DNA of 64,000 nucleotides. Source: Candidatus Cloacimonadota bacterium. Lineage in GTDB: Bacteria > Cloacimonadota > Cloacimonadia > Cloacimonadales > Cloacimonadaceae. The notes beneath the pieces were generated by a model. The model searched no databases. It was not told the DNA's origin and was given only the letters and a program-made list of their open reading frames with translations. Location of the stretch: positions 27,814 to 91,813 of the forward strand of contig JAKQWO010000036.1 of assembly GCA_029561955.1 (NCBI GenBank), read 5' to 3'. Shown here in pieces: positions 4,206-56,140 of the stretch (position 1 is its first letter; every line of letters starts with the position of its first letter). The translations under genes were made by a program, and so were the position numbers.

Positions 4206-4212
4206 AATATTC

Positions 4213-4416
4213 TCACTCCAATTCCCCAACCTTGATGTCATACTCAAGTGTTTTGCCAAAAAACTTTGATACACCTGTAAACAAAGCTTCTTTGTGCACT
4301 TTGTACTTGTTGATTAACTCTGCTTCCTCTTGAGTGAGCTCAACCTGAGCTCTGAGCTCAAATGAGATACCGCCCAAAAGGCCTTTCGACTGATCGCGAG
4401 TGATCGTTAAGATCAT
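4213..4416 (-). CDS. Hypothetical 67-aa protein
   Basis: ORF track. Stop lies 7 nt upstream of the giant ORF start and start lies 12 nt after the preceding gene. I recognise no motif. Confidence 0.55.
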   Translation of the reverse strand: MILTITRDQSKGLLGGISFELRAQVELTQEEAELINKYKVHKEALFTGVSKFFGKTLEYDIKVGELE

Positions 4417-4428
4417 TTCCTTTCTCCT

Positions 4429-4650
4429 TTACGAATATACGACAACTCTGCCGCTTAAATATCCTTTATGCACCCTGGAACCGCTGACAAAGACCTCTCC
4501 CTCGCCGGGGTCAGCATTCAGGTGCACTTCGCCATTGCTATTTGTGTATCCCTCCAATCCACCGCGCAGCAGCCCGGAAAAGGAGACATACACCTTCCTG
4601 CCACTCAGGGGCTTCCCTGTCGATTTTGAATACACTTGCACGGTAATCAT
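4429..4650 (-). CDS. Hypothetical small beta-rich protein (73 aa from ATG 4650; a GTG at 4662 would give 77 aa)
   Basis: ORF track 4429..4662. The internal ATG at 4650 is preceded by GTGAGG. 'ITVQVYSKSTGKPLSGRKVYV...GYTNSNGEVHL' resembles a carboxypeptidase-regulatory-like beta-sandwich (weak, by eye). Confidence 0.5.
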   Translation of the reverse strand: MITVQVYSKSTGKPLSGRKVYVSFSGLLRGGLEGYTNSNGEVHLNADPGEGEVFVSGSRVHKGYLSGRVVVYS

Positions 4651-5454: not shown

Positions 5455-5810
5455 GCTCAAACTCCTACTAAAATAGTAGGCATTCCCAAGTGACGACCGA
5501 CACCGGAAAAAGTAGGGCTTTCTGAAAAATTTGACCTACGCACGGGGAAAAGTTACAGGAAACGGCCCATTTTGACCCTCCTCAAAGCCGCTGTTTATGC
5601 GGCGTCCCTGCCCCGCCCCTGCTCGGCTCCTCCTCCATCGAGCAGGAACGGCATAGGATACCAAGAGGTTACGAGTTTGGGCGGAGTAGGCGCTCAGAAA
5701 GAGGTGAACCTTTTCAAAAAGGCAAATGTCTCGAAAACATCTGGTTTTTGCAAGGAAATTAAGGCCCCAAAATGCACACTTTTTCAACAAACGTGAACCG
5801 GCTTCACTGA
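5455..5810 (+). repeat. Dispersed ~350-bp intergenic repeat, family A, copy 1
   Basis: Aligns by eye over its whole length with 31771-32125 (reverse complement) and 55795-56140. It opens with the hairpin CCTACTA-AAA-TAGTAGG (5464-5480). Confidence 0.85.
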
Positions 5811-5927
5811 CTGGATTTTCCCACGGATGAACACGTATTTTCACGGATGTGTGAGGAAAGGAATTGACCAGTATCAATTGTGAGCGTTCTGGTGAAGCAT
5901 CTCGACCTAAATCATCAATCTGTCGCT

Positions 5928-9625: not shown

Positions 9626-12060
9626 TGGTCGTCTCCGCTTGCCACTCTGGACTCCATGCGGGAGATGTGTTTGATCTGCATGACGGTAAAGCCCATCAGC
9701 ATCAGGCTGAGCAGCCAGGCCATGGTGGTGGCAAGGCCAAATTTGAGGTAGAGGTAGGCCTTCTCAAAGATGAGCAGGTCTGCCACGCGGGTGGCTTCGT
9801 TGGGGCCGCCGAAGGTCATCACCAAGATGAAGTCGCTGGATTGGGCGGCGATGATGAAGGCGGCGATGAGTTGGATGATGATCAGGGCTTTGAGGCTGGG
9901 GAAAACGATGTGCCGCAGTTTGGCAAAGAAGCCGGCACCATCGATGTCTGCCGCTTCGTAAAGTTCGTTGGGGATGTTCTTTAGGGCTGCCAGGTAGATA
10001 AGGGAACCGGGGCCAATGCCTGCCCAGATACCGGGTAAAACCACGCAAAGCATGGCCAGCTTTTCGTCTTGAATCCACTGGCTTTTGGGGAGACCCAAGG
10101 CCATCAGGATTTGGTTGAGTGCACCTGCATCGCCGGGGTTGTAAAGCAGCTTCCATAGGTAGATTACGATCACGCCACTGATCACGGCGGGCAGGTAAAA
10201 GATCACGCGGTAGATGAGTTTGCCGTGGGAAACTTCCTGCAACATGATGGCCAGGACGATGGAAGGCCAAAAGCCGAGGCCGATGGATAAAGCCATGAAA
10301 TACAAGGTTCTGCCTACGCTGGCCCACCAGGTGGCGTCGAAGAGGACTTCGGCCAGATTGCCAAAACCAACCCAGGGGCTGTGGCCTACGAGCTTGTAGT
10401 CCTGTGCGGCCATCACGGAGCCGGAGATCAGCGGCACGTATTTCCACATGAAGATACTGATCACGGCGGGAGCTAAGAGGATGACGATCCAGAAGGTGCG
10501 GCGGGAGCTTTTGCTGTGGGTGATGCGGTGTTCGGGAGTGAGGATTTTCCATACTTTCCAGAGGGTGAAGCCAAAGGCAAAGAGGATGAGGGCGGCGATC
10601 ACAGCGGCTAAACGCTCTCGCTTGATCTTCTCTGCCTTGGGCAGGATGCCGATCATCTCTTTATTTGTGCGGTCTTGGGCAGCTTGCAGGATTTTGAGGA
10701 TGTTGGCTCTGCGGATCTGGGGATCGGTGCCCAATTTGCCGCTGCGATCCAGCTTGATCAGCTCCTCCAGGGGGTAGGTCATGAATTCGTAGACCTTCTG
10801 ACAGTTGTCGCCAAAGGGTTCGGGTTTGCCCTCGTTCATGGCGGTTTGGAAGGTCTCCAGCCAGCCTGCGGGGGAGTGGCGCAGCAGCTCATCGTAGCCG
10901 TAACGCTTGAGGAAGACAGGGTTTTGCACGCGGCCGTAGCCGTTTTCCACCATCACCTTGAGGCGGATCTTGCGGGCTTCCTCGCTATCGTAAAACTTGA
11001 TGTATTCCCAGGCGGCCTGACGAACTTCGGCGGCGTTCCTATCGCCCAAACCGGCGTTGTTGCTGATGCCCGCGCCGCTGAAGATGCCCATCATGCGGCA
11101 GTTGATCTCGCTGCCACCCTTGCCGGCGGGGCCTTGGGGAGCAGGAGCAAAGCCGTAGAGGTTGGGGTCGTAGCGTCCGCCCATGTTTTGCTGGGAGAGG
11201 TAGTCCATGCGCATGGCGATCTTACCTTCCGTCCAGTAGTAGCCCCAGTCGCCATCCCGCATGGAATAGCCCTCTTGGGGGCGGCCATGCTTGTCTGTCC
11301 AGGGGGTGTTGAGGATTTTGAGGTAGTATTCTGCGGCGTCCACGCCTGCTTCGGAGGCGAAAGCGGCTTTCCACTGCTGGGCTGCTTCATCCCAGACAAC
11401 CGCATCGCCGCCAGCAGCCCAGAGCAAGGGTAGCCAATCGTAGGCGGCTTGAGGGCCGGAGGCCAAAACGGTGCCATAGTAGTTGGTGGCGGGATCGCTG
11501 AGCTGGGCGGCATATTGCATGAATTCATCCCAGTCTTTTGGGGAGCGGTTGGGGTCTAAACCTGCCTTCTTGAAGACATCCTTGCGATACATGAGCACGC
11601 GCACCAAGGTCTCGTAAGGCAAAATCCAAATCTTCTCCTCATCTTTGCCCTTCTGCTTGCGCTTGATTACCTGCCAGACAGGCTTTTCCACTCGGAGCTT
11701 GAGCAGTTCGGAGTCCTCCTTGGCGATGAATTCGTCCAGAGGGTAAAGGAAGTTGTTTTGGATGTAAGTGTCGCTTTGGCGGAAGTTTACATAGAGGATG
11801 TCGGGTGCCACACCGCCGGCGATGGCCATGAGAGGAGCGGCGTCTAAATCCATCTTGTCGATCTTGATACCGGAAAAGGCGCGCAGCTCGATGTGGGGAA
11901 ACTTCTTTTTGAAAGCTTGCACCACGGCGGCATTTGCTTTGGAAGCAGCATCCGTGGCACGTGGGTCTGGCAGCTCAAAGACTTTGAGCACCACCGCTGA
12001 AAGCTGGGCGAGTGTGCTCAGCAGCAGGATGATAAACCAGATTCTACAAGCTTTCTGCAT
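9622..12060 (-). CDS. Fusion of an extracellular solute-binding protein and a MalF-like ABC permease, 812 aa
   Basis: Signal anchor, ~470-aa family-1 SBP-like region, then TM segments with EAA loop 'ELYEAADIDGAGFFAKLRHIVFPSLK'. 4-nt overlap with the downstream permease. Confidence 0.75.
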   Translation of the reverse strand: MQKACRIWFIILLLSTLAQLSAVVLKVFELPDPRATDAASKANAAVVQAFKKKFPHIELRAFSGIKIDKMDLDAAPLMAIAGGVAPDILYVNFRQSDTYIQNNFLYPLDEFIAKEDSELLKLRVEKPVWQVIKRKQKGKDEEKIWILPYETLVRVLMYRKDVFKKAGLDPNRSPKDWDEFMQYAAQLSDPATNYYGTVLASGPQAAYDWLPLLWAAGGDAVVWDEAAQQWKAAFASEAGVDAAEYYLKILNTPWTDKHGRPQEGYSMRDGDWGYYWTEGKIAMRMDYLSQQNMGGRYDPNLYGFAPAPQGPAGKGGSEINCRMMGIFSGAGISNNAGLGDRNAAEVRQAAWEYIKFYDSEEARKIRLKVMVENGYGRVQNPVFLKRYGYDELLRHSPAGWLETFQTAMNEGKPEPFGDNCQKVYEFMTYPLEELIKLDRSGKLGTDPQIRRANILKILQAAQDRTNKEMIGILPKAEKIKRERLAAVIAALILFAFGFTLWKVWKILTPEHRITHSKSSRRTFWIVILLAPAVISIFMWKYVPLISGSVMAAQDYKLVGHSPWVGFGNLAEVLFDATWWASVGRTLYFMALSIGLGFWPSIVLAIMLQEVSHGKLIYRVIFYLPAVISGVIVIYLWKLLYNPGDAGALNQILMALGLPKSQWIQDEKLAMLCVVLPGIWAGIGPGSLIYLAALKNIPNELYEAADIDGAGFFAKLRHIVFPSLKALIIIQLIAAFIIAAQSSDFILVMTFGGPNEATRVADLLIFEKAYLYLKFGLATTMAWLLSLMLMGFTVMQIKHISRMESRVASGDDQ

Positions 12061-28700: not shown

Positions 28701-30726
28701 GATGGAAGTGCCGCTCAGCTCTCAATTTGAATACAACGGCACATCAAACCTGAGTATCCTGATCGTGAAAGGCTATCAATACTGGACAAGTGCCTATCCG
28801 AGATGGACTTATACATCTGCCAGCACCTATAGAGTCAGGCGGGCTCAAAATGACTATGGTGCTCCCACAAATCTTTCAAGGAGCTACGACCTCCCCAACA
28901 TCCGCCTCAAGATTTACCCTCAGATGAGCGGGCCTGCCATTTCCTCCAATCCTACTTCCATTTCTGCTACCGTGCATGAGGATGAAAGCGGCAGCAGCAC
29001 ACTTATCCTGAGCAATAGCGGTGACTTGCCGCTTACCTGGAACACCAATGCCTCCTTCGCCACTTGGGGCAACGTGAGCCCTACCAGCGGAACCATCCCC
29101 ACAGGTGGCTCTGTGACGCTCACTGTGAGCTATAATGCCGCATCTTTGAGCGTGGGAACGCATCATGCCTCCATCCAGATCAATTCCGATGCTACCAATC
29201 AAAACCCCTACAACATCCCCGTTTCCTTGCAGGTTTTGGCCTCACCTTATCCTCCCAGCCCGCGTTTAGTGGCCGAATGGGAGCCCGCCAAGGGAGTTTT
29301 GGTGCGCTATCCTTTAGGCTTGCCCTACAATCTATTAGCCGATATTTCACAGCACGGAAAGCTATATGTGATCGTGAGTTCATCGGATCAAAGCAGTTGT
29401 CACAGCAACCTGAGCAGCAATGGCGTCAATATGAGCAACGTGATCTACATAAATGCCAGCACAAACAGCGTCTGGGTAAGGGATTACGCCCCCTGGTTTG
29501 TCTTCGATGATCAGCGTGAGCTGCGCGTGGTGGATTTTAAATACAACCGCCCCAGACCCAGTGATAATAACGTTCCCAGCGTGATTGCCGATGCCTTGGG
29601 CTATGAGTATCACTACCTGCCTCTGGTAGCCACAGGTGGAAATATGATGACGGACGGCCAGGGCAAGATGATGTCTACCACTTTGGTGCTGGAAGAGAAT
29701 GACGGAAACCCCAACACCGGCGGTGGACAGGTGACGGAATACACCTACACTCAAGCTGAGATTGAGACCTTGGTGGAGGACTATCTGGGCGTGAGCGAAT
29801 ATCAGTTTTATCAAGACCCAAATGGCACCTACATCGATCATATTGACTGCTGGGCCAAGCTTTTGGACGTGGATAAAGTGATGATCCGCAGCGTGCCGCC
29901 ATCGCATGCTCAATACTCCGCCATCGAAGCCTCGGTAGCCGAGTGGCAGAGCAAAACTTCCTCCTACGGAACGCCTTACCGCATCTACCGTGTCAATACG
30001 CCCAACGATGAGCCCTATTCCAATAGCCTCATCTTCAACAATTACATCTATGTGCCGCTGATGGGGAACGCCAACGACGCTGCCGCTCTGCAAGCCTATC
30101 GTGACGCCATGCCCGGCTACACGGTGAACGGATACACCTATTCCGCTTTTCAGGGCACCGATGCGCTGCACTGCCGCACCAATACTATCTTTGACGAGGG
30201 CATGATCCAGATCATCCACACTCCCGTGACTACCGCCATGGCAAGCTCGCCCTTGGAGATCAATTTCAGCCTCTCTCATGTGGATGCCATAGACTTGAAT
30301 GGCTCCTACGTGGCCTATAAATCCGCCACTGATGCCACTTGGCAATATGCCACCCTCAGCTCACTGGGAAACGATGACTGGACAGCGGAGGTCATTGCAC
30401 CCGCCTTTGGAGAAGAGATGCAGTATTATATCTACGTGCAGGACAGCAGCGGCCGTCAAAGCCAGATGCCGCTCTGCGGGCCGAGCGATCCCTTCAGCTT
30501 CGTTATCGATCAGGCTTTGCCAGTCGCACCGATTGTGAATATTCAGATCGTCTCTGAGGCCGCTTATCTGAGCTGGGAAGCTGTTCCCGGGGCTGCATAC
30601 TACAAGGTCTATAAGGCCAGCTATCCTTATGGGGAGTATGAGTTTATCGGTCAGACAATTGATACTTCCTTCGACATCACACCTCTGGCAGATAAAGCCT
30701 TTTTCAAGGTGGTAAGCGGCTTTTGA
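25777..30726 (+). CDS. Secreted multidomain protein, 1649 aa. Gingipain-type C25 cysteine protease plus Ig-like repeats plus a Porphyromonas-type peptidyl-arginine/agmatine deiminase-fold domain plus a FN3-like C-terminus.
   Basis: Start moved to ATG 25777 (MKYLDRIWLSLLLLFPLLLMAG) because the track ORF begins inside the terminator. C25 catalytic His in 'INYVGHGG' (~27063) and Cys in 'MDVACVNGNF' (~27163). Deiminase motifs 'VWVRDYAPWF', 'ATGGNMMTDGQG', 'IDHIDCWAKLL' and 'TDALHCRTN' lie between ~29260 and 30240. Confidence 0.85.
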   Translation: MKYLDRIWLSLLLLFPLLLMAGSLQLGSGETLVNVLESSAEQTILHFQIGSFESESVEIDNETWQHLILEKEGVLQLEGYPALPVVNRSIIIDGRAQMHLELYDVIYEDLQLKVAPSKGVIPRNIDPKTVPYRFADVYEKDEFYPREIATLSEPYILRDYRGITVNATPFAYNPVSQTLRIFKSFKLRIYAEGESQVNTLDASRSSFSRDFEQVYAQHFINWPSHRYTPVNDSFGKLLVICHSSFMDAIQPYVNWKKQKGIETELINFSTIGSTAAQLQSYIQNRYNADNSIAYVQIVGDAPQIPTLTHQSGGSDPTFSLVAGSDNYPDIFIGRFSAQSVADVNAQVNKTIAYERDATTADNWLSRAMGIASSEGSSSADNGETDIQHMNVIRTKLLNYGYTSVDQVYDPNASASTVTNNVNAGRGLINYVGHGGDTSWVTTGFNNTNASNLTNGTKTPVIMDVACVNGNFVAKTCFAEAWQRNANGGSVTIYASSINQSWASPMRAQDEFNDLLVGEQKFTAGGLYYNASCKMMDVYGTDGVNMFKTWHIFGDAALLVRSKTPTAMNVTHPNSIVQGTTSLTVNTGVANALVALTNNNNILGRGYTNSAGTVTLSLSGMPEGSATYTLTVTAHNRVTYIATVTQVPPSGPWIDVEEATWQDNNNDEPEFGESGALSLKLKNSGSEPSAALTLTLSCSTTGVTLTNNTHQTDAIAAGVTVDIHSAFGIQLADNLLDGTELNFSLSITSGTQSWTHEFVLIAKAPALALGDILVNDSTGNNSGTLDPGENVNLIITILNNGAAASPAGSVSLSSPTTGITIGTSSIDIQSIAAGASIQVSFPVSVSASMPQGSSASFDVMAITGAYYVAQTFLLQVGDPIAVTIGNGTDTQSYPLNRYYSYSAHEAIYLSSEIGMAGRIEKIAFYKSSGSDTNPIEAVQIYMKHTSSSTQDNGTYSTAGYTLVFSGSYPNHSTSGWMEVPLSSQFEYNGTSNLSILIVKGYQYWTSAYPRWTYTSASTYRVRRAQNDYGAPTNLSRSYDLPNIRLKIYPQMSGPAISSNPTSISATVHEDESGSSTLILSNSGDLPLTWNTNASFATWGNVSPTSGTIPTGGSVTLTVSYNAASLSVGTHHASIQINSDATNQNPYNIPVSLQVLASPYPPSPRLVAEWEPAKGVLVRYPLGLPYNLLADISQHGKLYVIVSSSDQSSCHSNLSSNGVNMSNVIYINASTNSVWVRDYAPWFVFDDQRELRVVDFKYNRPRPSDNNVPSVIADALGYEYHYLPLVATGGNMMTDGQGKMMSTTLVLEENDGNPNTGGGQVTEYTYTQAEIETLVEDYLGVSEYQFYQDPNGTYIDHIDCWAKLLDVDKVMIRSVPPSHAQYSAIEASVAEWQSKTSSYGTPYRIYRVNTPNDEPYSNSLIFNNYIYVPLMGNANDAAALQAYRDAMPGYTVNGYTYSAFQGTDALHCRTNTIFDEGMIQIIHTPVTTAMASSPLEINFSLSHVDAIDLNGSYVAYKSATDATWQYATLSSLGNDDWTAEVIAPAFGEEMQYYIYVQDSSGRQSQMPLCGPSDPFSFVIDQALPVAPIVNIQIVSEAAYLSWEAVPGAAYYKVYKASYPYGEYEFIGQTIDTSFDITPLADKAFFKVVSGF

Positions 30727-31631
30727 AGCATAAACCCGTACCTAAAGCGCTGACCTACTTCAAGGCCATTTTAGCCACGTTTTTCTGGGCTATCACCTTC
30801 ATCTGGGTCAAGATAGCCCTTGAGGTTTATCGACCTTATGAAATCGTGATTTTACGGCTGGTGCTTGCCGCGGGTCTGCTCTTCACGATCATGCTTTTTA
30901 CCGGGCATTGGGAAAAGCCCAAGCCAAAGGATATGCTGCGGCTGATGTTTGTGGCTTTCTGTGAGCCTTTCATCTACTTTATCGGCGAGACAAACGGCCT
31001 GATGTATGTGTCGTCCACTTTGGGAGCCTTGGTGATTTCCACCATCCCCTTGGTCACGGCCTTTATGGCTTGGCTGCTGCTCAAGGAAAACATCTCTACC
31101 TGGCTTTTTGCCGGACTTTTTGTCTCCTTTGCGGGAGTGGTGATCATGGCCATGTCTTCCACCGACCTTAGCGGCACGCTCAAAGGCATGCTCTATCTGA
31201 GCTTAGCTGTCATCGGCGGCACCTTCTTTGGCATCACCATCAAGCCACTCACGCATCGCTACAGTGCGCTCACCATCGTGGGTTGGCAAAACCTCTGGGG
31301 CCTTATCTACTTCATCCCCGTGTTTTTATACTTTGATGGTGCCCATTTCTTTGGCATGCAACACCAGCTCAAGCCCCTGCTGGCAATCGTGAGCATGAGC
31401 CTCTGCGGCAGCGTGGGTGCTTTCATGCTCTACACCGGCGTGATCAGAGAAATGGGCGTGATCAAATCCAACCTCTTCACCAATCTGATCCCAGTCTATA
31501 CCGTGATTTTGGCCTATCTCATCCTGGGAGACAAGCTGAACCTGCGCTCCGCTTCGGGGCTATTGATCACGCTTATCGGCATAGTGATCTCGCAGATTCC
31601 GGATATCAGGAAGCTGAGGAAGACAATGTGA
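30723..31631 (+). CDS. DMT/EamA-family transporter
   Basis: About ten predicted TM segments in an EamA-like arrangement. TTG start overlaps the preceding stop. Confidence 0.7.
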   Translation: MKHKPVPKALTYFKAILATFFWAITFIWVKIALEVYRPYEIVILRLVLAAGLLFTIMLFTGHWEKPKPKDMLRLMFVAFCEPFIYFIGETNGLMYVSSTLGALVISTIPLVTAFMAWLLLKENISTWLFAGLFVSFAGVVIMAMSSTDLSGTLKGMLYLSLAVIGGTFFGITIKPLTHRYSALTIVGWQNLWGLIYFIPVFLYFDGAHFFGMQHQLKPLLAIVSMSLCGSVGAFMLYTGVIREMGVIKSNLFTNLIPVYTVILAYLILGDKLNLRSASGLLITLIGIVISQIPDIRKLRKTM

Positions 31632-31770
31632 TGTTGATGCGATTCGTAGACCTCTCCTTAATTGGATAGGAAATCCCTGAAACATAGTCTCCATCTACAC
31701 TTGGGAGTCAAACTACAACCTGCAACCAACAACTGGGCGACGCAGCCGGCCCTGTTCGTGGAAAAATTCA

Positions 31771-32125
31771 GATGGCGAAGCCGGCTCACGTTTGTTGAAA
31801 AAAGTGTGCATTTTTGGGGCTTAATTTCCTTGCAAAAACCAGATATTTTCGAGACATTTGCCTTTTTGAAAAGGTTCACCCCTTTCCGAGCGCCTACTCC
31901 GCCCAAACTCGTAACCTGCTGCAATCCTATGCCATTCCTGCTCCACGGAGCAGGGGGCTAACAGGGGCGGGGCTGGGAAGCCGCATAAACAGCGGCTTTG
32001 AGGGGGGTCAAAAATGGCCGTTTCCTGTAACTTTTTCCCGTGCGGAGGTCAAATTTTTCAGAAAGAGCTGCTTTTTCAGGTGCCGGAGCTCGGAAAGAAA
32101 CTCCTACTATTTTGGTAGGTGTTTG
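31771..32125 (-). repeat. Family A dispersed repeat, copy 2 (inverted relative to copy 1)
   Basis: Its reverse complement aligns with 5455-5810. Hairpin CCTACTA-TTT-TGGTAGG at 32103-32119. Confidence 0.85.
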
Positions 32126-32199
32126 ACCGTCGCTCTCTGATGACAAAATATAAACTCGCAAGCACGGAAGCATTTTCTCCACCAAACCGCACTTTGTCC

Positions 32200-32229
32200 T
32201 TGACAGCTACCTCAGCCTTAAAATACTTA
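32200..32229 (+). promoter_or_regulatory. Promoter candidate of the five-gene island
   Basis: TTGACA (32200-32205), 17 or 18 nt of spacer, ATACTTA (32223-32229), about 80 nt upstream of the ATG at 32310. Confidence 0.4.
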
Positions 32230-32309
32230 CACCAAGTGAGAAAATGGACATAAGGAGTATCTAACTATATGGAAAGCGTGCAGCTTGCCTTGACGGAAAG
32301 GAGTATAAG

Positions 32310-33440
32310 ATGTTAAAAAGATTGTATGTAAACAACTACAGGTGCTTGGTCAATTTCGAGATTGGGTTTGACGCCATGACATTGCTTTTAGGCAGGAATG
32401 GCAGCGGGAAAACGAGCATCTTGGATATTCTTCACAGCATCAGAAGATTGATAACTGGCAGCGATAGAGTAGGTGAAGTCATCTCACTGGACGACATGAC
32501 AGTTTGGTTAGATTCCAAAAAGCAGACATTCGAGCTGTCAGTTGAGGGTAATGGTGGATTGTATGATTACAAGCTTGTGCTTGAGTACAATGAGAAACAA
32601 AAGGGACTGCAAATAGATTCCGAATCCCTACGATGTAATGGTATTCCGTTGTTTGATTTTTTGAAAGGGGAAGTTGATGTATATATTGATGACCGTTCCG
32701 GATTGCATTACCCTGTTGATCCGTCCTGGTCTGCACTTACCATCACAACTGACGTTAATAGAAGTGGTAGAATCGAGTGGTTCAGAAAATGGTTTGAGAA
32801 GCTATTTGTCCTGAGCATTCAGCCCCAGAATATGAGTGCTACAAGTAAATCCGAATCAGTTGGGTTGAACCTCTATGGGACGGATTTTGTTTCTTGGTAC
32901 AGGTTTATCTCCCAAGAATATCAGGACATGATCCCAGTGTTATTTAAAAACCTCAGGGATTCTATACCCGGCTTTGCTTCCTTCAGGCTGGAAACCATTG
33001 GTGACAGCAAAAAGCTGAAAGTGGGTTTTGAAAGTGAAGATAACCCCCAGAAAATACAATTCTTCGATTTTGATCGTATCTCGGATGGTGAAAGAGCACT
33101 AATCGTCTTGTATACGCTGATAATTGGATTAAAAGATCTGGGCATAACTTTGGTACTTGATGAGCCGGTTAATTTTGTTGCTTTGTCTGAGATCCAACCT
33201 TGGCTGATGGAACTCAATGATGCTTGTGGTGTTAGAGATCTACAAGATCACAGCCGTGGTATTGCCCAGACTATTATTGCCAGCCATCATCCTGAACTGA
33301 TGGACTACTTTGGGATAGATGATTGCAGGTTCCTTGATCGAGAGCCACTGGGGCCAACGCGGGTAAAACTACCATCAGCCGAGCTTGATGGCAGTTTAAG
33401 CCTCTCTGAGGTCATCGCACGGGGGTGGGAGCATGAGTAA
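32310..33440 (+). CDS. ABC-type (AAA_15/AAA_21-like, RloA-like) ATPase, 376 aa
   Basis: Walker A 'GRNGSGKTS', signature-like 'ISDGERALIVLY', Walker B 'LVLDEP' and H-loop 'IASHHP'. Confidence 0.8.
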   Translation: MLKRLYVNNYRCLVNFEIGFDAMTLLLGRNGSGKTSILDILHSIRRLITGSDRVGEVISLDDMTVWLDSKKQTFELSVEGNGGLYDYKLVLEYNEKQKGLQIDSESLRCNGIPLFDFLKGEVDVYIDDRSGLHYPVDPSWSALTITTDVNRSGRIEWFRKWFEKLFVLSIQPQNMSATSKSESVGLNLYGTDFVSWYRFISQEYQDMIPVLFKNLRDSIPGFASFRLETIGDSKKLKVGFESEDNPQKIQFFDFDRISDGERALIVLYTLIIGLKDLGITLVLDEPVNFVALSEIQPWLMELNDACGVRDLQDHSRGIAQTIIASHHPELMDYFGIDDCRFLDREPLGPTRVKLPSAELDGSLSLSEVIARGWEHE

Positions 33441-33975
33441 AAGAAGGAAAGCAACGCTCATTGTTGTCTGCGAGGATAAGCGTCAAAAGACCTTCGCATA
33501 CAGATTTTTGCTTGGCATGGGATGGGAGAGACATCAGATACACTTTAGCAAAATGTCATCAGGAAGTGGATCGGGGGCAAAAAGGGTAATAGAAACGTAT
33601 CCCCTAGAGCTGAAGATTTATAGGAGCAGACACGTTACTTGTGCCCTTGTGGTGATTATTGATGGAGATGAGCGAGGAGTTGAGGCAAGGATGCGGCAAC
33701 TTAACCAAGAATGCGGGAATTTTGGAATCCCGTGCAGGCAAAAGGAAGAAAAGGTTGCTTTCATTGTACCAACATACAGCATTGAAACTTGGATCAGGTT
33801 TTTGCAAGGATACCCGGTGAATGAAGAATTAAACTATAAGGAGAAAGTACACGATGATGAATGCAAGCCGTCTGCAGACAGGCTAGTTGAATATTGCAAG
33901 TCAACAGTTTTACCCAATAATGCGCCATCCGCCTTACGTTTGGCGTGTGATGAATACCGGGAGAGGATAAGGTGA
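33433..33975 (+). CDS. Small Toprim-like protein (RloB/DUF4276-like), 180 aa
   Basis: 8-nt overlap with the ATPase gene. 'ATLIVVCEDKRQKTFAYRF' (strand plus acidic pair) and 'ALVVIIDGDERG' (DxD) fit the Toprim E...DxD pattern. Confidence 0.55.
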   Translation: MSKRRKATLIVVCEDKRQKTFAYRFLLGMGWERHQIHFSKMSSGSGSGAKRVIETYPLELKIYRSRHVTCALVVIIDGDERGVEARMRQLNQECGNFGIPCRQKEEKVAFIVPTYSIETWIRFLQGYPVNEELNYKEKVHDDECKPSADRLVEYCKSTVLPNNAPSALRLACDEYRERIR

Positions 33976-34090
33976 GTGTGGCTGCTATTCTTATGCACTG
34001 TCCCAAGTGTTTGTATACTGGAAGGGTTATTATGTTGGCTGGTCCAGTGGAAGATAGAAAAGAGCTGATAATGAAGATAAGGAGAAAACA

Positions 34091-34834
34091 ATGGATCCAA
34101 TAAGTGCAGCAGTCGTCATCAAAGAGGCTGCAGAAAAGACGGCTTTAGCAGTCAAAGAAACATTAAAGTTGGCGGAATTAGCAAAAGAAGGCATTAAACG
34201 TCTCAAGATAAGAGAATTGTTCAAAAGTAAAGAGCTGAGTCCCAATGCCTTAGAACTTGCCAAAGAAAACTATAAACACCTGCACAAAAAGATAAGTGAG
34301 GCTAAAGAAAATGCTGAACTTCGTGCTCCAACGATTAACCAATTGATGGATGAATCCAATAACCTAAAGGGTCAAATGGGAGAGTTCCATGCCGATCAAT
34401 ATTTTAGCAGATTCGGAGAAGTTAAAAGACAATTGTCTGTCACAACAGAAAGGGGACAATTTAGGGTGGATTTCGATGTTAGGTTGAAAAAAAACATGCC
34501 CATAAAGTCTTTCACTATGAAGGACGGAATCTTAAAGTCGAGGCGTGAAGTAATACGAGCTGGCGAGAGGATGGGCGTAGAAATCAAGAATGGCCCCACT
34601 GAATTATACCAAAACCCTGAACATGTTATCAATCAAGCCCTGGCAGCCAAAGAGTTGACGGGGAATGGCTGTATTGGAATAAGCAAAACAGTATCGGAAG
34701 CCATATGTGAAAATCCTGAATCATATGAGAAGTTTTTTAATATGGCCGCAGAAAATGATATCAGAATTATAGAGACACACCCTACAATAGATCAACAAAT
34801 ATCCGAAATAATTAGCCTGTTTAAGGAGGACTGA
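34091..34834 (+). CDS. Coiled-coil protein with a PD-(D/E)xK nuclease-like core, 247 aa
   Basis: AAGGAG precedes the ATG. The first ~90 aa are helical and K/E-rich. Then 'GEFHADQYF' (E98), 'FRVDFDV' (D127/D129) and 'GVEIKNG' (E164-x-K166). Confidence 0.5.
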   Translation: MDPISAAVVIKEAAEKTALAVKETLKLAELAKEGIKRLKIRELFKSKELSPNALELAKENYKHLHKKISEAKENAELRAPTINQLMDESNNLKGQMGEFHADQYFSRFGEVKRQLSVTTERGQFRVDFDVRLKKNMPIKSFTMKDGILKSRREVIRAGERMGVEIKNGPTELYQNPEHVINQALAAKELTGNGCIGISKTVSEAICENPESYEKFFNMAAENDIRIIETHPTIDQQISEIISLFKED

Positions 34835-35253
34835 TGCCACACATATACACAATTTCATCTGACGAGAGGTTACTAACGCTATACAATGGATTCGACATGG
34901 CTGCAGGAAATGCATTTGAAGGAGATGAAAGACAGAGATTCAAAGCCATTCTATCTGCCCGGGAGTATAGGAGTCGGCTATTGGAGCGGCTAAAAGAACT
35001 TGATGGGTCGGATAAGCCCAGGATAATAGACCCCAAAATTATTGACAACAAAGCTAACGATCAAACGCTAATAGGAAGATTTGCAGCACTCCTGCTTGGC
35101 AAAACGGACCTTGGTGAATTCATTTTGCACAACCAAGATAAGGTGGGTGAGGAGCTGAGAAGCTTGCTGAGTGATATAGAGCGAAAAACCAAAGCCGATC
35201 AATATGTGTTGTTTTGGCTTGTGAGTGAGGAGGATCAAGATGGCATTATATAA
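34834..35253 (+). CDS. Hypothetical protein, 139 aa
   Basis: Its ATG overlaps the previous stop by 1 nt (TGATG). No motif recognised. Confidence 0.5.
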   Translation: MPHIYTISSDERLLTLYNGFDMAAGNAFEGDERQRFKAILSAREYRSRLLERLKELDGSDKPRIIDPKIIDNKANDQTLIGRFAALLLGKTDLGEFILHNQDKVGEELRSLLSDIERKTKADQYVLFWLVSEEDQDGII

Positions 35254-38200
35254 GCTAAAAAGTATTAGATATTCTAACAAAATGGAGAAGATGCGAGTTC
35301 AAAATGGAAGGTCAGACGTTGTATTAGAGCTTAATAGTGGCTTCATGAACTTCCGACAGTTGCTAAAACTTGTTTCAGAACAACCAAGCTCTGACGAAGG
35401 CATCAGATTTGTTTTTCGAATCGAGTATATCAACCAGCTATTATCATATTATGTCAAAACACCCTCATTTAATGGTGATGTTTTAGATAGCTCAGGCAGT
35501 GTCTGGGAGAGGGTAGATGAATTTAATTGCGGACTGAATAAGCATGAGAAACTTTGTGGATCTTATCACATCAACGTAGCCAATGGGGCTACTACCAACC
35601 CGATAGACGATTTTGTGTCAAACAATAGAGATATGGATTTCGCTATTGAGATGGAGTTTTTCATATGCTTTTGGCCTGTTTCAAACTTTATTCTGTCAGA
35701 ACTAAGCCGGTTTATTCGTAAATTATCGGGTGAGAAACAGGAGAGTTCTAACCAGAGTGTATTGTTAGTGGGATGGTCTCAGACTGAGGTCTCTGTCGAC
35801 AAAGAGTCGCTGTTCAACTATCTTTACGACTTATACTATATCATGAATCAATCCTTTCCTCATTTCTTACGACCAGCTATCACATTTTACGCTAAGAATG
35901 AGGATGATTTGGGGCGTTTAAGGGCGTCACTATATACGGGAAGTGAAAAAATCGGTGTGAACACCAATATCCGGTATCTATTCGAAGACCGTCCTTGGGA
36001 GCTTGATGATAAACTAAGTATCCTAAATTACGACGCGCAATTGGAAATGCCAAAGCGGGTAAATAAATTATCTGATAACTTCTTTAAATACAACCAGTTG
36101 TTTAGATGTATCACAAACGTAAACTTCGTCAGTGCGCTTTTTGCTTTTCCTCAAACTAAGATACCAGGCATTAGCTACATTGAAGAGATCGATTATGGAA
36201 CCATAGATGATGCAGCGAAGCTCTCGAGTGAATATCGCTTGGGAACATTGTTTCATAACTACCAAACGCGTCTGCCTGTAACCATTGATCCAGATGATTT
36301 GGTGAAACATACGCTTGTTACAGGTGTTACAGGCAGTGGTAAAACTACTACGATCAAATCGTTACTTATGACTTTGTATGAAGACAAGAAGCCCTTTTTG
36401 ATTCTTGAGCCAGCTAAGACCGAGTATAAAGATTTAAATATAGGGGGACTTAGACGCTATATATTGGGAATTGAGACAGAAAAATGTTTGAAGATAAACC
36501 CCTTCGAGTTTCCCTATAAAAAGGGTGCGAACGGATTTCACCTCCAGACTCATTTGGATCTCTTAAAGTCAATATTCATCGCAGCGTTTCCCATGTATGG
36601 TCCCATGCCCTACGTTTTGGAAACCGCATTCTACTATATCTACCAATGGCATGGTTGGGATTTCAAGTCGGGGCACAATATCTACTGGGATGATGCTTCT
36701 GTCGATAATTCTGAGCTGTTTCCCACTCTGGACGATCTCTACAATGCTATAGATCATATCGTGAGCATTCAAGGATACTCAATTGACTTTCAAAACGATC
36801 TCACCGCAGCCCTAAAGGTAAGAGTGGGAAGTCTAAAGAGTGGTGCCAAGGGTGTCATGCTAAACACCAAGCACGGGACTGGTATAGGCGAACTGCTAAG
36901 TTGTCCCACGGTAGTTGAACTGGAACGGATAGGTGACGCTCAAGAAAAGGTCTTTATCATGGGGCTCCTTTTGGTTAGTATTTATGAATACTACATAGCC
37001 AAAGGTGCTGAATCTGAGGCAAAGTTGAGGCATTTGCTCGTTATTGAAGAAGCTCACAGATTGTTAGAGAACGTGCAACAGATCAATAACGATGAAATTG
37101 CGGACATGAAGGGCAAGGCAATCGAGACTTTTAACCACATCCTGTCCGAGATCAGGGCGTATGGGCAGGGTATCATGGTGGCAGATCAGATACCCACAAA
37201 AATCAGTCCGGATGTAGTCAAGAACACAAACCTCAAGATTATTCACCGCCTGTTTTCTCTTGATGATCGTAATGCAGTTGGAGATGCTATAGGCCTCGAT
37301 TTTAAGCAGAAGAAAGGGCTCATTAACTTGGAAGTTGGAGAGGCAATCGTGTTCCATGCCAAACTGCAGGAGGCCGTTAAAGTAAAGATTGACTCAAGAG
37401 GAAAAGAGAAGGGGAGCTTGTCCCAGAAGGTTGAACCTAAAGAGCTGAATGCCTTGGATGTAGTGATTAGCACTACTGCTATCCACTCAGAAACCAAAAA
37501 GGTGTTCCACACAGCGTTGGTATTTGATTGGAGCTATGCCAAATTGAGAGAGAAGCTGGAAAGAGTCCTTCGAAGATTCTCCATTGAACCAGATGAAGGG
37601 CTTATTGGGGAGTTGGTTTCTAACTTGGTAGAGTGGTTTGCCATCAGGCTTAGAAACAACAAATTAGTCCCTTATTCATTACCCAAAGAAAATGAGATAA
37701 AGGCTCTTGCCAAGAGTCCAGGGGATGCGATCAAAGGTCTTAGGGCTTTTATCAATATGAACTCCCATATGGTACAATTTCCCACCACATTGGAGACAAT
37801 CTCAGTTGATGCTTTGGATTATTTCATCTACGTTTATACAGAGGATCGCAAAGCAGTGGCTAAGATTATCACTGCTATCATGAATGCTCGCGTTGAGAAA
37901 TTCAGATATTACGATGAGGAAACACAGAGTATTATCATTTCAGAAGGTAGTGCAGAAAAGTACTTCTGCACTGATGATTTATCCGAAGACGAGATTATGG
38001 ATTTATGCCAGTGTATAGTCTATTTCTGTTCATACCCGCATACTGGTTTTGAGTATTACTTCGATCCATACGGCTCGCCAGTTTCAGACGATGAGTATAT
38101 GGAATACCTTGTATCATCTGATGAGAATAAGCCTGCCAATATATCGGTGATAACTCCTCCAATAGACCGCAATACTAAGGAACTTTTGGAATCTATTGCA

Positions 38201-38335
38201 GGTGGTTTGAAAGAATTTGGGCAAAAACAAGCGGGTGATCCAAATATTAAAGGATTGCTGCGCTTGCCGATAGTGTTAATGCTGATAAACAGTCTGTTTA
38301 TTATCATGGGAGTACTCTATTTGATATTCCGTTAG
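35240..38335 (+). CDS. HerA/FtsK-superfamily P-loop ATPase with a ~350-aa unknown N-terminal region and a C-terminal transmembrane anchor, 1031 aa
   Basis: Start at ATG 35240, after GGAGGA (the track start at 35225 is also possible). Walker A 'LVTGVTGSGKTTT', Walker B 'LLVIEEAHRLL', 'IMVADQIPTKISPDVVKNTNLKIIHRL'. The last 25 aa, 'LLRLPIVLMLINSLFIIMGVLYLIF', are hydrophobic. Confidence 0.8.
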   Translation: MALYKLKSIRYSNKMEKMRVQNGRSDVVLELNSGFMNFRQLLKLVSEQPSSDEGIRFVFRIEYINQLLSYYVKTPSFNGDVLDSSGSVWERVDEFNCGLNKHEKLCGSYHINVANGATTNPIDDFVSNNRDMDFAIEMEFFICFWPVSNFILSELSRFIRKLSGEKQESSNQSVLLVGWSQTEVSVDKESLFNYLYDLYYIMNQSFPHFLRPAITFYAKNEDDLGRLRASLYTGSEKIGVNTNIRYLFEDRPWELDDKLSILNYDAQLEMPKRVNKLSDNFFKYNQLFRCITNVNFVSALFAFPQTKIPGISYIEEIDYGTIDDAAKLSSEYRLGTLFHNYQTRLPVTIDPDDLVKHTLVTGVTGSGKTTTIKSLLMTLYEDKKPFLILEPAKTEYKDLNIGGLRRYILGIETEKCLKINPFEFPYKKGANGFHLQTHLDLLKSIFIAAFPMYGPMPYVLETAFYYIYQWHGWDFKSGHNIYWDDASVDNSELFPTLDDLYNAIDHIVSIQGYSIDFQNDLTAALKVRVGSLKSGAKGVMLNTKHGTGIGELLSCPTVVELERIGDAQEKVFIMGLLLVSIYEYYIAKGAESEAKLRHLLVIEEAHRLLENVQQINNDEIADMKGKAIETFNHILSEIRAYGQGIMVADQIPTKISPDVVKNTNLKIIHRLFSLDDRNAVGDAIGLDFKQKKGLINLEVGEAIVFHAKLQEAVKVKIDSRGKEKGSLSQKVEPKELNALDVVISTTAIHSETKKVFHTALVFDWSYAKLREKLERVLRRFSIEPDEGLIGELVSNLVEWFAIRLRNNKLVPYSLPKENEIKALAKSPGDAIKGLRAFINMNSHMVQFPTTLETISVDALDYFIYVYTEDRKAVAKIITAIMNARVEKFRYYDEETQSIIISEGSAEKYFCTDDLSEDEIMDLCQCIVYFCSYPHTGFEYYFDPYGSPVSDDEYMEYLVSSDENKPANISVITPPIDRNTKELLESIAGGLKEFGQKQAGDPNIKGLLRLPIVLMLINSLFIIMGVLYLIFR

Positions 38336-38388
38336 TGATCAATCATAATGACTGCAGTATAGAATTGACTGTGATTTCACAAAGATAA

Positions 38389-38715: not shown

Positions 38716-38898
38716 GTAACCAGAAAGGGAAAACCAAACAATAAAAACACGATTGCAGTTAGCGATTCCGCAAAAACTCACATTCTCATAGCCTTTTCTG
38801 AAGATGAGACTTGACAAATGGAGCCTATCGTGCATTCTGGCTCGTCTAAGTTAATTATGACTTAAACTCATTAAAATAGCACCCTCAAGAGGAAAGAC

Positions 38899-40761
38899 AT
38901 GCAAAAGAAGAGACTTTTATTTGCGGCAGTGATCTTGCTGTTTCTGAGCACTTTGCTGATGGGGCAGAGTGTGAAATTTGCCATTTCGCCGGCCAAATTG
39001 GAGCCGGGCGACAAGGGCGTCATCACGGCTACTTTGAGCATTCCGGATGGAAAGCATCAGAGCCATGATCCAAGCGACCCTGCTTACTTTTATTTGGAGG
39101 CTTCACATCCTTCGCTGAGTTTTGGAAAAGTTATCTATCCCAAAGGTTACAAGGTGGTGAGTGCAACCCAATGGGACTATCACAAATCGGTAAAGCTCAC
39201 CCTGCCCTTTACGGTAAAGAAAGATGCGCCAGCCGGCAAAGTCAATATCGAAGCGACCCTGGCCTATAACCTCTGTTTTGATGATGGCATGTGTGAACCG
39301 CCGGACGAAGCCGTGGGAAAAGTGGCACTGGAGATTCTTGCCGCGGCAAATACAGAGCCGGGTACAGAAAAGCCGATCGCAGCCGCAGGAGCGGAAGCTG
39401 AGGAAACCGAAGCAGTTGAGCAGGCTGAACAATCGGAAGCTGAGGCTTTACCCAGCGAGGGCGATCAGCCCAAAGAAAAGGAAGAGAGTTCCATGGGCAC
39501 CATCCTCAAGTATATGCTCTTTGCGCTGTTGGGAGGTTTGATCCTCAATATCACACCTTGTGTATTGCCCATCCTGCCCATCCGCGTGATGGCGATCGTC
39601 AATCAAGCTCACCAAGACAGGGGTAAGGTGCTCTTACACACCTTGGTTTACAGCTTGGGTGTGCTGCTGTCTTTTGCCATTTTGGCGGGTATTTTCATCG
39701 GTTTGCGCAGCGCAGGTGAGACGCAGGGTTGGGGCTTCCAAAACCAAAACCCGATGTTCAATGTGATCCTGCTGAGCGTTGTTTTTGCCTTTGCGCTCTC
39801 GCTTTTGGGCGTCTTTGTGCTTACCGTTCCGGGGATGAACACCGCCTCCAAGGCCACATCCAAGGGCGGTTACAGTGGTTCGTTCTTTGGTGGCATCTTT
39901 GCCTTTGTGATGGCGATTTCCTGCACAGGGCCTTTTTTGGGTGCAGCCTTACCCTTTGCTTTCAAGCTTTCCTCGCCGCTGCTGATGCTGTTTTTCCTGC
40001 TGATCGGTCTCGGCTTTGCCCTGCCCTTCATCCTGATCGGTATCTTTCCCGGTGCTCTCAAGATCATCCCCAAACCGGGTGAATGGATGAACATCTTCAA
40101 GGAAGTGATGGGATTTGTGCTTTTGTATCTGGTTTACACCATGCTCAAAACCACGCTTGCGCTCACCAGCGGTGCCTATCTGCTCAATGTGGTCTTTTAC
40201 CTGATCGTGCTGGGCTTTGCGCTCTGGATGTATGGACGCTTTGTGAGAGCAGAAAACTCCACCGCCACCCAATGGGTCTTCAGCATCCTCGCCTTGGTCG
40301 TGATCGTGGCAGGTGGCCTGATGTTCTTGCCCATCAAAGCGGAACACCTACAGGCGGAAGTGGTGATGCAGGCGGACGCCAGCGGCATGATTCCCGCTCC
40401 GCATGCACCGGAAGGTTGGTATGTATTCAGTCCGGAAGTGCATGAGAAGCTGATGTCGGAAAACAAACCGGTGTTTCTGGATATCGGTGCAGACTGGTGT
40501 AAAAACTGCATGACCAACGAGAAAACGGTGCTTTTCACGGATAATATGATGCAGGAATTTAAGGCGGCGGGAGTAACGTTATTGAGAGGGGATTTCACGC
40601 GGAGCGATCCGGTGCTGCTCAAGTGGATTCAGGATCACGACCGCATGGGAGTTCCTTTCAACGCTCTTTATATTCCCGGCAAAGAGCCCATCCTCTTTCC
40701 GGAGCTGATCAGCCACAAGATGGTCAAAGAAGCTCTGGATCAGATACCTAAAGGAGAATAA
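38899..40761 (+). CDS. dsbD: Thiol:disulfide interchange protein DsbD-like
   Basis: Signal peptide, N-terminal soluble domain, TM core with 'TPCVLPILP', and a C-terminal thioredoxin-like 'WCKNC'. Confidence 0.8.
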   Translation: MQKKRLLFAAVILLFLSTLLMGQSVKFAISPAKLEPGDKGVITATLSIPDGKHQSHDPSDPAYFYLEASHPSLSFGKVIYPKGYKVVSATQWDYHKSVKLTLPFTVKKDAPAGKVNIEATLAYNLCFDDGMCEPPDEAVGKVALEILAAANTEPGTEKPIAAAGAEAEETEAVEQAEQSEAEALPSEGDQPKEKEESSMGTILKYMLFALLGGLILNITPCVLPILPIRVMAIVNQAHQDRGKVLLHTLVYSLGVLLSFAILAGIFIGLRSAGETQGWGFQNQNPMFNVILLSVVFAFALSLLGVFVLTVPGMNTASKATSKGGYSGSFFGGIFAFVMAISCTGPFLGAALPFAFKLSSPLLMLFFLLIGLGFALPFILIGIFPGALKIIPKPGEWMNIFKEVMGFVLLYLVYTMLKTTLALTSGAYLLNVVFYLIVLGFALWMYGRFVRAENSTATQWVFSILALVVIVAGGLMFLPIKAEHLQAEVVMQADASGMIPAPHAPEGWYVFSPEVHEKLMSENKPVFLDIGADWCKNCMTNEKTVLFTDNMMQEFKAAGVTLLRGDFTRSDPVLLKWIQDHDRMGVPFNALYIPGKEPILFPELISHKMVKEALDQIPKGE

Positions 40762-55543: not shown

Positions 55544-55794
55544 TAAAACTCCTGTGAACTCACCAAATAGTAAGGCGGGTTTGTTAATTTGGTGCCACTT
55601 TCTACGAAGCGCAGAATAAGGCAAGACTTTTTTAGCGGTAGGGAGTAAAATGTTCATATACTCCTGAGAGAACGGCTCGATTTGCCGCTTACGAAGTATG
55701 GGCGCTCGCCGCAGCGACCGGCAAGTGCATCTTGCTTCAAAAAGGAAGGCTCAAGTTCAATTAGGGTGGATGGAAGCAAAGAAACAAGAAACGT

Positions 55795-56140
55795 TCAAAC
55801 ACCTACTATTTTAGTAGGAGTTCATTTCCGCGCACGGGTGTCGGGAAAAAGCAGGTCTTTCTGAAATATTTGCCTGTCTGGCAGGAAAAAGTAACAGGAA
55901 ACGGCCGTTTTTGACCCCCCTTAAAGCCACTGTTTATGCGGCGTCCCTGCCCCGCCCCTGCTCGGCTCCTCCTCCATCGAGCAGGAATGGCATAGGATAG
56001 CAATAGGTTACACGTTTGGGCGGAGGAGGCGCTTAGTAACCGGTGAACCTTTTCAAAAAGTCAAATGTTTCGATATATTCTCGGCTTTTTAGTGGTGATT
56101 AAGACCCAAAATGGACGTTATTTCAGCCCTAAAAAGCGGG
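55795..56140 (+). repeat. Family A dispersed repeat, copy 3
   Basis: Hairpin CCTACTA-TTT-TAGTAGG (55802-55818), followed by sequence collinear with 5455-5810. The 3' third is more diverged. Confidence 0.8.

Follow-up and report, generated by a model that had tools for sequence, protein, structure and literature searches.

The question addressed here is what kind of system is encoded by two overlapping genes in a 64,000-nucleotide stretch of DNA (hereafter the window) from a Candidatus Cloacimonadota bacterium (NCBI GenBank assembly GCA_029561955.1, contig JAKQWO010000036.1, positions 27,814 to 91,813 of the forward strand). Both genes lie on the forward strand. According to the list of open reading frames (ORFs), gene A (32310..33440) encodes an ATP-binding cassette (ABC)-type ATPase of the AAA_21 family with 376 amino acids (42.9 kDa, isoelectric point (pI) 4.9), and gene B (33433..33975) encodes a small Toprim-like protein of an unannotated family with 180 amino acids (20.9 kDa, pI 9.1). 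An earlier note, made by a model from the sequence alone, had read the two as a split module following the logic of OLD nucleases, Gabija GajA and PARIS. The comparisons reported below indicate that the pair is a divergent, unannotated member of the known class of candidate anti-phage modules represented by HEC-01, MAD3-MAD4 and AbiL and not a new kind of system.

Sequence comparison confirmed gene A as a predicted AAA_21 ABC ATPase with the full motif set. All four strings named in the earlier note were located, namely GRNGSGKTS at residues 28-36 (Walker A, with K34), SDGERALIVLY at 258-268 (signature SDGER at 258-262), LVLDEP at 281-286 (Walker B) and ASHHP at 324-328 (H-loop SHHP at 325-328). 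In an alignment of 71 homologues of gene A, conservation of the Walker A motif, SDG, DEP and SHHPE reaches 95% or more. The Pfam family AAA_21 (PF13304) matches with 1.1e-14 and 55.7 bits (cut-off 27), and the alignment joins residues 23-332 to the complete profile (1-304 of 304), whereas AAA_15, AAA_23 and SMC_N match at the P-loop end only. No transporter, nuclease or long coiled-coil domain was found in the 376 residues, and the same had been stated before for transporter and nuclease domains. Among the PADLOC models, HEC-01A covers A over its full length (1.2e-16, residues 2-337 versus profile 9-337 of 399), as do PDC-M25A (3.8e-15), AbiLi (1.4e-14) and mad3 (6.6e-12). The PADLOC profile "AriA" is listed first, but its length and coordinates equal those of Pfam AAA_21, hence this match is nonspecific. 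The PADLOC matches to GajA are limited to the N-terminal P-loop region, and among PDB sequences A was likewise matched in the P-loop region only, by Rad50, the Thermus OLD nuclease, EttA and PtuA.

Gene B belongs to a large family. A word-seeded search yielded 10 clusters, whose alignment was used for an exhaustive hidden Markov model search that returned 1,670 clusters at 50% identity (E <= 1e-3), 330 of them at E <= 1e-30. Nearly all clusters are 170-195 amino acids long, with about 180 being typical. Where names are given they always read "hypothetical protein", none carries a precomputed Pfam domain, and the current Pfam, NCBIfam and PADLOC models miss the family. Conservation was counted, and profiles were scanned for each member, on a 135-sequence alignment. 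Two motifs stand out in B, TLIVVCEDKRQKTFAYRF at residues 8-25 and VVIIDGDERG at 73-82. E14, D77 and W120 are invariant (135/135), D15, D79 and E131 are each present in 132 members, and R64, R86 and E118 in 130, 127 and 126 members, respectively. The acidic pair after the first strand had correctly been numbered E14/D15, whereas the DxD motif, previously given as D68/D70, corresponds to D77/D79 in the actual ORF numbering. Several cysteines are also well conserved (C13 in 122/135, C172 in 120/135, C144 in 115/135, C155 in 110/135 and C94 in 85/135), and C94, C144, C155 and C172 occur together in 69 of the 135 proteins. C13 adjoins the invariant E14, and the cysteine set could represent a zinc, iron-sulfur or redox site; no counterpart of it has been described for MAD4 or HEC-01B. 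Decay of window B was considered and rejected, since it deviates at 7 of 39 conserved columns, where the members of the family have a median of 4 and at most 10 such deviations, and since it retains the catalytic residues.

At the level of this family, the relationship to Toprim proteins is well supported by sequence comparison, short of proof. When the members were scanned individually against Pfam, 39 of the 135 matched DUF3226 (best 1.8e-6), 22 DUF4276 (best 6.8e-6), four RloB and one OLD-like_TOPRIM, and no unrelated family was found in more than two members. The corresponding PADLOC scan returned HEC-01B for 59 members (best 2.9e-8), PDC-M38B for 35, mad4 for 32, PDC-M31B for 11 and AbiLii for four. 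The family consensus exceeds the cut-off of DUF3226 (PF11536; 30.5 bits, cut-off 27) with residues 9-112 aligned to profile positions 3-100 of 208; this match comprises the N-terminal half of the profile only, and window B itself is without match. For DUF4276 (PF14103) the consensus scores 23.9 bits (E = 5.8e-5, residues 12-179, profile 1-148 of 192), which is below the gathering score of 30.2 bits, and window B has no match at E <= 1, so that B appears on sequence grounds as a remote relative and not a member of DUF4276. Further consensus alignments were obtained with HEC-01B (E = 3.7e-7, residues 7-113, profile 2-102 of 204) and mad4 (E = 0.0014, residues 6-115, profile 5-105 of 110), and the alignments to all four models are colinear from the first strand onwards. 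An AlphaFold2 model of B, built with the 135-sequence alignment, reached a pLDDT (predicted local distance difference test) score of 94.6 and a predicted template modelling (pTM) score of 0.90. It shows β1 (residues 9-13), α1, β2 (36-38), α2, β3 (71-75), α3, β4 (108-111) and α4, an order of β-α-β-α-β-α-β-α that fits the Toprim core, and two further C-terminal helices after α4 forming a domain that carries the conserved C144, C155 and C172. From conservation and the model, the putative metal-binding residues are E14/D15 directly after β1, D77/D79 after β3 and E118, in an IETW motif, after β4. The family thus has the Glu after β1 and the DxD after β3 that define Toprim domains, and the placement of Glu, DxD and the further acidic residue is the arrangement of DUF4276, RloB, RNase M5 and OLD nucleases (PMC12065111). 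The Toprim superfamily includes both DUF4276 and RloB, and Mad4 is homologous to DUF4276 (PMC12065111). The previous description of B as a Toprim-like protein of the RloB/DUF4276 type is hence supported for the family as a whole, with its DUF3226, DUF4276 and RloB matches, and could not be demonstrated from the window protein taken alone.

The two genes are strictly associated. They share an overlap of 8 nucleotides, ATGAGTAA (33433..33440, forward strand, six-frame ORF list), in which B starts within the end of A; the overlap agrees with the earlier description and implies translational coupling, as read from the sequence. A scan of 185,579 species' genomes (one genome per species) gave 115 relatives, from which 80 loci were kept for the pairing analysis; all of these are metagenome-assembled genomes, many from sponge symbionts. 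They represent at least ten phyla and include Cloacimonadota, Acidobacteriota (Thermoanaerobaculia, Vicinamibacterales, Holophagales), Gemmatimonadota, Planctomycetota, Rhodothermales, Binatia, Acidimicrobiia, Alpha- and Gammaproteobacteria, Latescibacterota, Myxococcota and Spirochaetia. A full-length A homologue (E <= 3.6e-36) is found directly upstream of B on the same strand in 78 of the 80 loci, with junctions ranging from -14 to +114 nucleotides and overlapping genes in 74 of these 78; in the two exceptions the B gene is situated at a contig edge or is truncated. Such consistent pairing, in 78 of 80 genomes, makes the association more than chance, and the same pair was also present in all six metagenomic contexts inspected. 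There is no conserved third gene, as the commonest neighbour family appears in only 5 of 78 loci, and the functional unit is therefore the A-B pair; a close same-strand gene follows downstream in 9 of 77 pairs only. A tblastn search of plasmids retrieved nothing for B and only two cyanobacterial relatives for A. These sister ATPases, on plasmids of Kovacikia and Dolichospermum, are 28% identical to A. On the unannotated plasmid pA of the cultured strain Kovacikia minuta (2950-4595 of the extracted locus) the ATPase overlaps by 4 nucleotides a 164-amino-acid ORF that lacks a Pfam match and has the same E...DxD...E layout (ILVLPEDE...LLIDFDRE...SNPEEL). On the Dolichospermum plasmid (3995-5309 of the locus) only a 51-amino-acid ORF follows the ATPase, the partner having probably been lost.

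Which of the known two-gene systems is closest? HEC-01 is a PADLOC candidate consisting of the ABC ATPase HEC-01A and the TOPRIM/DUF4276 protein HEC-01B (Payne et al., bioRxiv 10.1101/2024.01.29.577857). It shares with our pair two overlapping genes, the first for an ABC ATPase (about 370-400 amino acids) and the second for a small Toprim-like protein (about 180-230), and an occasional location within larger methylation-based defence operons, which in the case of the window-type pair are BREX operons. As judged from PADLOC E-values, A matches HEC-01A over its full length with 1.2e-16 (5.7e-138 for a canonical HEC-01A), whereas window B has no HEC-01B match and 59 of the 135 family members do. 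The motifs of B (C-E-D, D-[AG]-D and N-I-E-T-W) also differ from those of the canonical pair (V-E-G-x-x-E, D-Y-Y and H-E-F-E-A). Both kinds of pair were found 1.4 kb apart in one Latescibacterota genome (6904-8507 for the B-family pair, 9945-11758 for the canonical one); the latter combines the HEC-01A ATPase with 5.7e-138 and a 229-amino-acid DUF4276 protein with VEGETEE and HEFEA motifs. The coexistence of the two pairs suggests that they are probably non-redundant.

The only biochemically characterised relative is MAD3-MAD4, which is housed in the methylation-associated defence system (MADS) of Pseudomonas aeruginosa (PMC13662399; bioRxiv 10.1101/2023.03.30.534895). It forms a 2:2 heterotetramer, in which MAD4 alone is insoluble and MAD3 alone has no ATPase activity; the complex hydrolyses ATP, binds double-stranded DNA and nicks or linearises plasmids with Mg2+ or Mn2+, and its toxicity requires both proteins, neither being toxic alone (PMC13662399). 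It resembles the window pair in the split between an ABC/P-loop ATPase and a small Toprim-like protein whose C-terminal domain is helical. Of the MAD4 acidic pocket, formed by D12, D55, D81, E83, E119 and E121 (PMC13662399), D12, D81/E83 and E119/E121 are very close in spacing to E14, D77/D79 and E118 of B. Overall the similarity is remote, with an MAD3 of about 50 kDa compared to 43 kDa for A, and MAD3-MAD4 is accessory to a larger operon of eight genes that includes a methylase, whereas the window-type pair is autonomous. The size of B, called unusually small in the earlier note, is not exceptional in this group, given the 229 amino acids of the canonical DUF4276 partner mentioned above and the approximately 25 kDa of MAD4 (PMC13662399). 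A complete MADS was rejected for the window, because MAD6, MAD7 and MAD8 are mandatory besides the methyltransferase MAD2, and the island has neither a methyltransferase nor MAD6 or MAD7.

Similarly, AbiL (AbiLi and AbiLii, Lactococcus) and RloA/RloB (Campylobacter) are bicistronic combinations of an ABC/AAA_21 ATPase and a small RloB/Toprim-like protein. Here A matches AbiLi with 1.4e-14, and RloB or AbiLii is reached by four of the 135 B members and not by window B. For AbiL, abortive infection has been demonstrated experimentally (Deng et al. 1999, cited in PMC13064643). With PARIS and OLD/GajA only the general logic of an ABC ATPase controlling a Toprim nuclease is shared (PMC11464382), so that of the earlier comparison this general pairing stands, while HEC-01 and MAD3-MAD4, and not PARIS, are the nearest named relatives. 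PARIS combines AriB, a DUF4435 protein of about 35 kDa, with an AriA that is larger than A and contains a coiled-coil insertion. DUF4435 was not among the 25 commonest Pfam families matched by the 135 B members, nor was it found for window B. PARIS was therefore rejected, given the missing DUF4435, the 376 residues of A and the sole AriA match behaving exactly like AAA_21. Class 1 OLD proteins and Gabija GajA were rejected as well, since the domains are fused there and occur as separate ORFs in 78 of 78 related loci here.

The genomic surroundings of the pairs add to this picture. Three genomes, each from another lineage, carry the pair inside a type 1 BREX operon, between pglX and pglZ/brxL. 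In a Cloacimonadota genome (97-14475 of the locus) it lies between the BREX methylase gene pglX and pglZ/brxL, and the same operon also embeds a Septu-like pair of an ATPase and an HNH protein (PtuB 6.7e-83) and a Schlafen/AlbA_2-HATPase_c_4 gene; in two Planctomycetota genomes it follows pglX. A D12-class (Dam-type) methylase gene is situated after B in five Vicinamibacterales loci (L020, L028, L054, L058 and L087), and in three of the five it is followed by a gene for a PDDEXK_11 (PD-(D/E)xK) nuclease. In another locus (L005, 8525-9880) the reading frame of a Dam-type methylase overlaps. These arrangements taken together resemble a restriction-modification unit fused to the pair. Moreover, in a Thermoanaerobaculia genome (8536-10358) and a Rhodothermales genome (8563-10320) a second pair of an ATPase and a PIN-like protein of about 150 amino acids (PADLOC PDC-M07B, 3.9e-55) directly follows B, giving a tandem A-B-A'-B' array. 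Among 146 neighbours at two genes' distance, scattered defence genes were detected, namely PglZ, a prokaryotic Argonaute (pAgo) with SIR2-APAZ, PtuB, DarG, mad6, PD-T4-6, a type IIG restriction-modification enzyme, PDC-M07B and one canonical HEC-01A.

We hold with moderate confidence that the pair is a self-contained, translationally coupled, split OLD-like ATPase-nuclease module of the A2B2 type, comparable to MAD3-MAD4, and that it probably serves in defence. This reading is supported by the embedding in BREX operons, the Dam methylase genes beside the pair in Vicinamibacterales, the low-GC variable site with its HerA-nuclease trio in the window, the strict pairing, the family homology, the acidic residues and the predicted topology. 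By analogy with MAD3-MAD4 (PMC13662399), A might dimerise via its nucleotide-binding heads, and two copies of the basic B (pI 9.1) would dock on the acidic A dimer (pI 4.9) to give an A2B2 complex. Docking would stabilise B and render A capable of ATP hydrolysis. B may then bind Mg2+ or Mn2+ via E14/D15, D77/D79 and E118 and, controlled by A, cleave nucleic acid, so that the complex could act in conflicts with phages or mobile elements, with A as sensor or regulator and B as effector. We infer complex formation, stoichiometry, nuclease activity and its substrate, the trigger and the defence phenotype from this analogy.

Several observations weigh against a defence module with a nucleolytic B. 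For window B itself, Pfam, NCBIfam and PHROGs return nothing at E <= 1, and PADLOC gives only the marginal matches PDC-M38B (0.003) and RT-Toprim (0.022). Foldseek searches of both B models against the PDB, and of the better one against BFVD, returned nothing at E <= 1e-3; the top PDB matches were generic flavodoxin-like folds, mainly lumazine synthase, with a template modelling (TM) score of about 0.38. In profile-profile comparison with hhalign, the family matched a 37-sequence DUF4276 alignment (a narrow set of close homologues of the canonical Latescibacterota protein with 64-92% identity) over β1-α1 only with E = 0.18. A is only 18% identical to the canonical HEC-01A, and HEC-01 did not protect against any phage with which it was challenged (bioRxiv 10.1101/2024.01.29.577857). 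In MAD3-MAD4 itself, active-site mutants lost cleavage only partly, and ATP hydrolysis was unlinked to cleavage (PMC13662399). The 150 immediate neighbours of the pairs are mostly housekeeping genes, such as those for CoA-transferases, ALAD, FMN dehydrogenases, amidohydrolases and permeases. The association with defence genes is thus at most suggestive of an enrichment; the expectation of enrichment in defence islands was borne out only in part, with three pairs inside BREX operons and most others standing alone. Beside these points, the hhalign comparison with the canonical Latescibacterota DUF4276 protein alone gave E = 0.28, again over β1-α1 only. The best BFVD match of the B model, which counts in favour of the preferred reading, was an RloB-like protein (E 0.013, probability 0.92), with a DnaG TOPRIM domain at rank 5 (E 0.069). 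Searches of PDB sequences with the 10- and 135-sequence B profiles produced noise only, and because a canonical DUF4276 profile likewise finds nothing there, such a search is without power. The PDB copy used by Foldseek dates from April 2026, before the publication of the MAD3-MAD4 structures in October 2026; for this reason, and given the equally negative DUF4276 profile, the structural and PDB nulls carry little weight.

The alternative that survives best, although we regard it as unlikely, is a selfish addiction cassette resembling toxin-antitoxin systems, in which A restrains a toxic nuclease B and the cassette is retained because its loss kills the cell. The compact, overlapping bicistronic unit, which stands alone at scattered sites in many phyla, would fit such an element, as would the distant sister pair on a cyanobacterial plasmid, the VapC-type toxin-antitoxin genes adjoining the Dolichospermum ATPase and the description of PARIS as type II toxin-antitoxin-like (PMC13064643). 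However, the toxicity of MAD3-MAD4 needs both proteins (PMC13662399), which is the opposite of toxin-antitoxin logic, and within the Cloacimonadota the pair is passed on at a single, constant site of the chromosome. An addiction cassette would, moreover, be compatible with a role in defence.

There is also a small chance that B has a Toprim-like α/β fold and is not a nuclease, acting instead as a nucleotide- or metal-binding regulatory subunit or as a phosphoesterase, with redox or zinc chemistry at its cysteines. The failure of Foldseek to find a significant match to a solved Toprim nuclease agrees with this, as do the strongest Pfam relative, DUF3226, being of unknown function, and the position of C13 beside the invariant Glu together with the 81-90% conservation of C144, C155 and C172. 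Yet the E...DxD...E set corresponds to the metal sites of MAD4, OLD and RNase M5 (PMC13662399, PMC12065111), the families matched by B members include DUF4276, RloB, OLD-like_TOPRIM, HEC-01B and mad4, and the structural nulls weigh little for the reasons given above.

Beyond the preferred defence-module reading, it appears rather doubtful that A and B form a distinct, unnamed branch of split ATPase-Toprim systems, which would be activated by a cysteine-based metal or redox switch unlike anything in MAD3-MAD4 or HEC-01 and would serve as a portable plug-in. The switch would then comprise C13, adjoining the catalytic Glu, together with C144, C155 and C172 of the helical domain, and this seems equally doubtful. 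No better prospects are given to the idea that BREX, the Dam methylase with its PD-(D/E)xK nuclease, the ATPase-PIN pair and a HerA-nuclease trio are the partners of such a plug-in. The least credible alternative is a housekeeping repair or recombination-mediator pair like RecF/RecR, with an SMC/RecF-type A and a B that would be a non-cutting, Toprim-fold DNA clamp: A has the size of RecF, the recF and Rad50 models match at its N-terminus (TIGR00611, 6.6e-8), metabolic or housekeeping genes surround most of the 78 pairs and the Toprim domain of RecR is non-nucleolytic, but no RecR, RecF or repair family is significant beyond the P-loop region (the NCBIfam RecF match covers residues 2-42 of A only, with 32 bits against a cut-off of 172, and neither B nor any of the 135 members matches RecR in NCBIfam or Pfam), the distribution is patchy with 115 matches in 185,579 species' genomes, the window pair lies in a low-GC variable site and others are BREX-embedded in three lineages, and the invariant full acidic metal-binding set points to catalysis.

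Comparison with syntenic Cloacimonadota contigs provides information on the history of the site in the window. The nucleotide identity amounts to 82% for the upstream EamA gene (30000-31650), 74-76% for the pair (32276-33975) and 84.5% for the downstream DsbD cluster (38787-40500); the pair thus diverges faster than its flanks (74-76% versus 82-85%) and yet remains at the same site. Related contigs lack the segment at 34.0-38.5 kb of the window, which encodes a trio of a nuclease, a small protein and a HerA-like protein, and in four of them (4243-5157 in L001, also in L002-L004) a gene for a 304-amino-acid DUF5655 protein follows B in place of the trio. Hence, the pair is a stable resident of a variable low-GC site and the trio is a separate module. 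A five-gene system of pair and trio was rejected, because no trio homologue occurs beside the pair in the 80 loci, and further because the syntenic relatives keep the pair without the trio. Since the two are never adjacent elsewhere, their vicinity probably reflects co-location in a hotspot. The HerA-like ATPase of the trio (1036 amino acids, 35225-38335) matches PADLOC mad8 with 1.1e-18 in its C-terminal ATPase half, and the other two trio proteins have no PADLOC match. The island therefore presents a MAD3/MAD4-like pair beside a MAD8-like ATPase, with no methylase.

The GC content is 0.436 for the pair and 0.418 for positions 32150-38340, compared to 0.52 and 0.51 in the flanks, so that the pair does open a low-GC stretch, in agreement with the AT-rich island proposed before. 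Directly upstream lies a repeat, also seen earlier. It belongs to a dispersed intergenic element of about 330-370 nucleotides that occurs three times in the window (5457-5825, 31757-32130 and 55791-56125; 82-87% identity). The element next to gene A has the opposite orientation to the remaining two, and an Rfam scan of 31500-34200, including the element copy at 31.7-32.1 kb, revealed no RNA family. A promoter-like sequence TTGACA-N16-AATACT (32200..32227, forward strand, 10 of 12 consensus matches) precedes gene A; promoter-like sites near gene A are no more numerous than in shuffled sequence, and it is to be taken as a pattern match only. A Shine-Dalgarno-like GGAAAGGAG (AGGAG; 32295..32303, forward strand), recognised by direct reading, is placed 6 nucleotides 5' of the ATG of gene A.

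Regarding the wider meaning of these results, our knowledge of how such systems work is left unchanged, and the closest catalogued relative is without a demonstrated phenotype. What the pair does add to the class of split ABC-ATPase and Toprim systems, which are candidate immune modules, is a large family that spans at least ten phyla and comprises 1,670 or more clusters at 50% identity. The family comes almost wholly from uncultured bacteria. As the current models miss it, censuses of defence systems in these phyla probably undercount it. Furthermore, with their compact size (43 and 21 kDa) and near-invariant acidic site, the two proteins offer a convenient second case for the model of assembly-dependent activation recently proposed for MAD3-MAD4.

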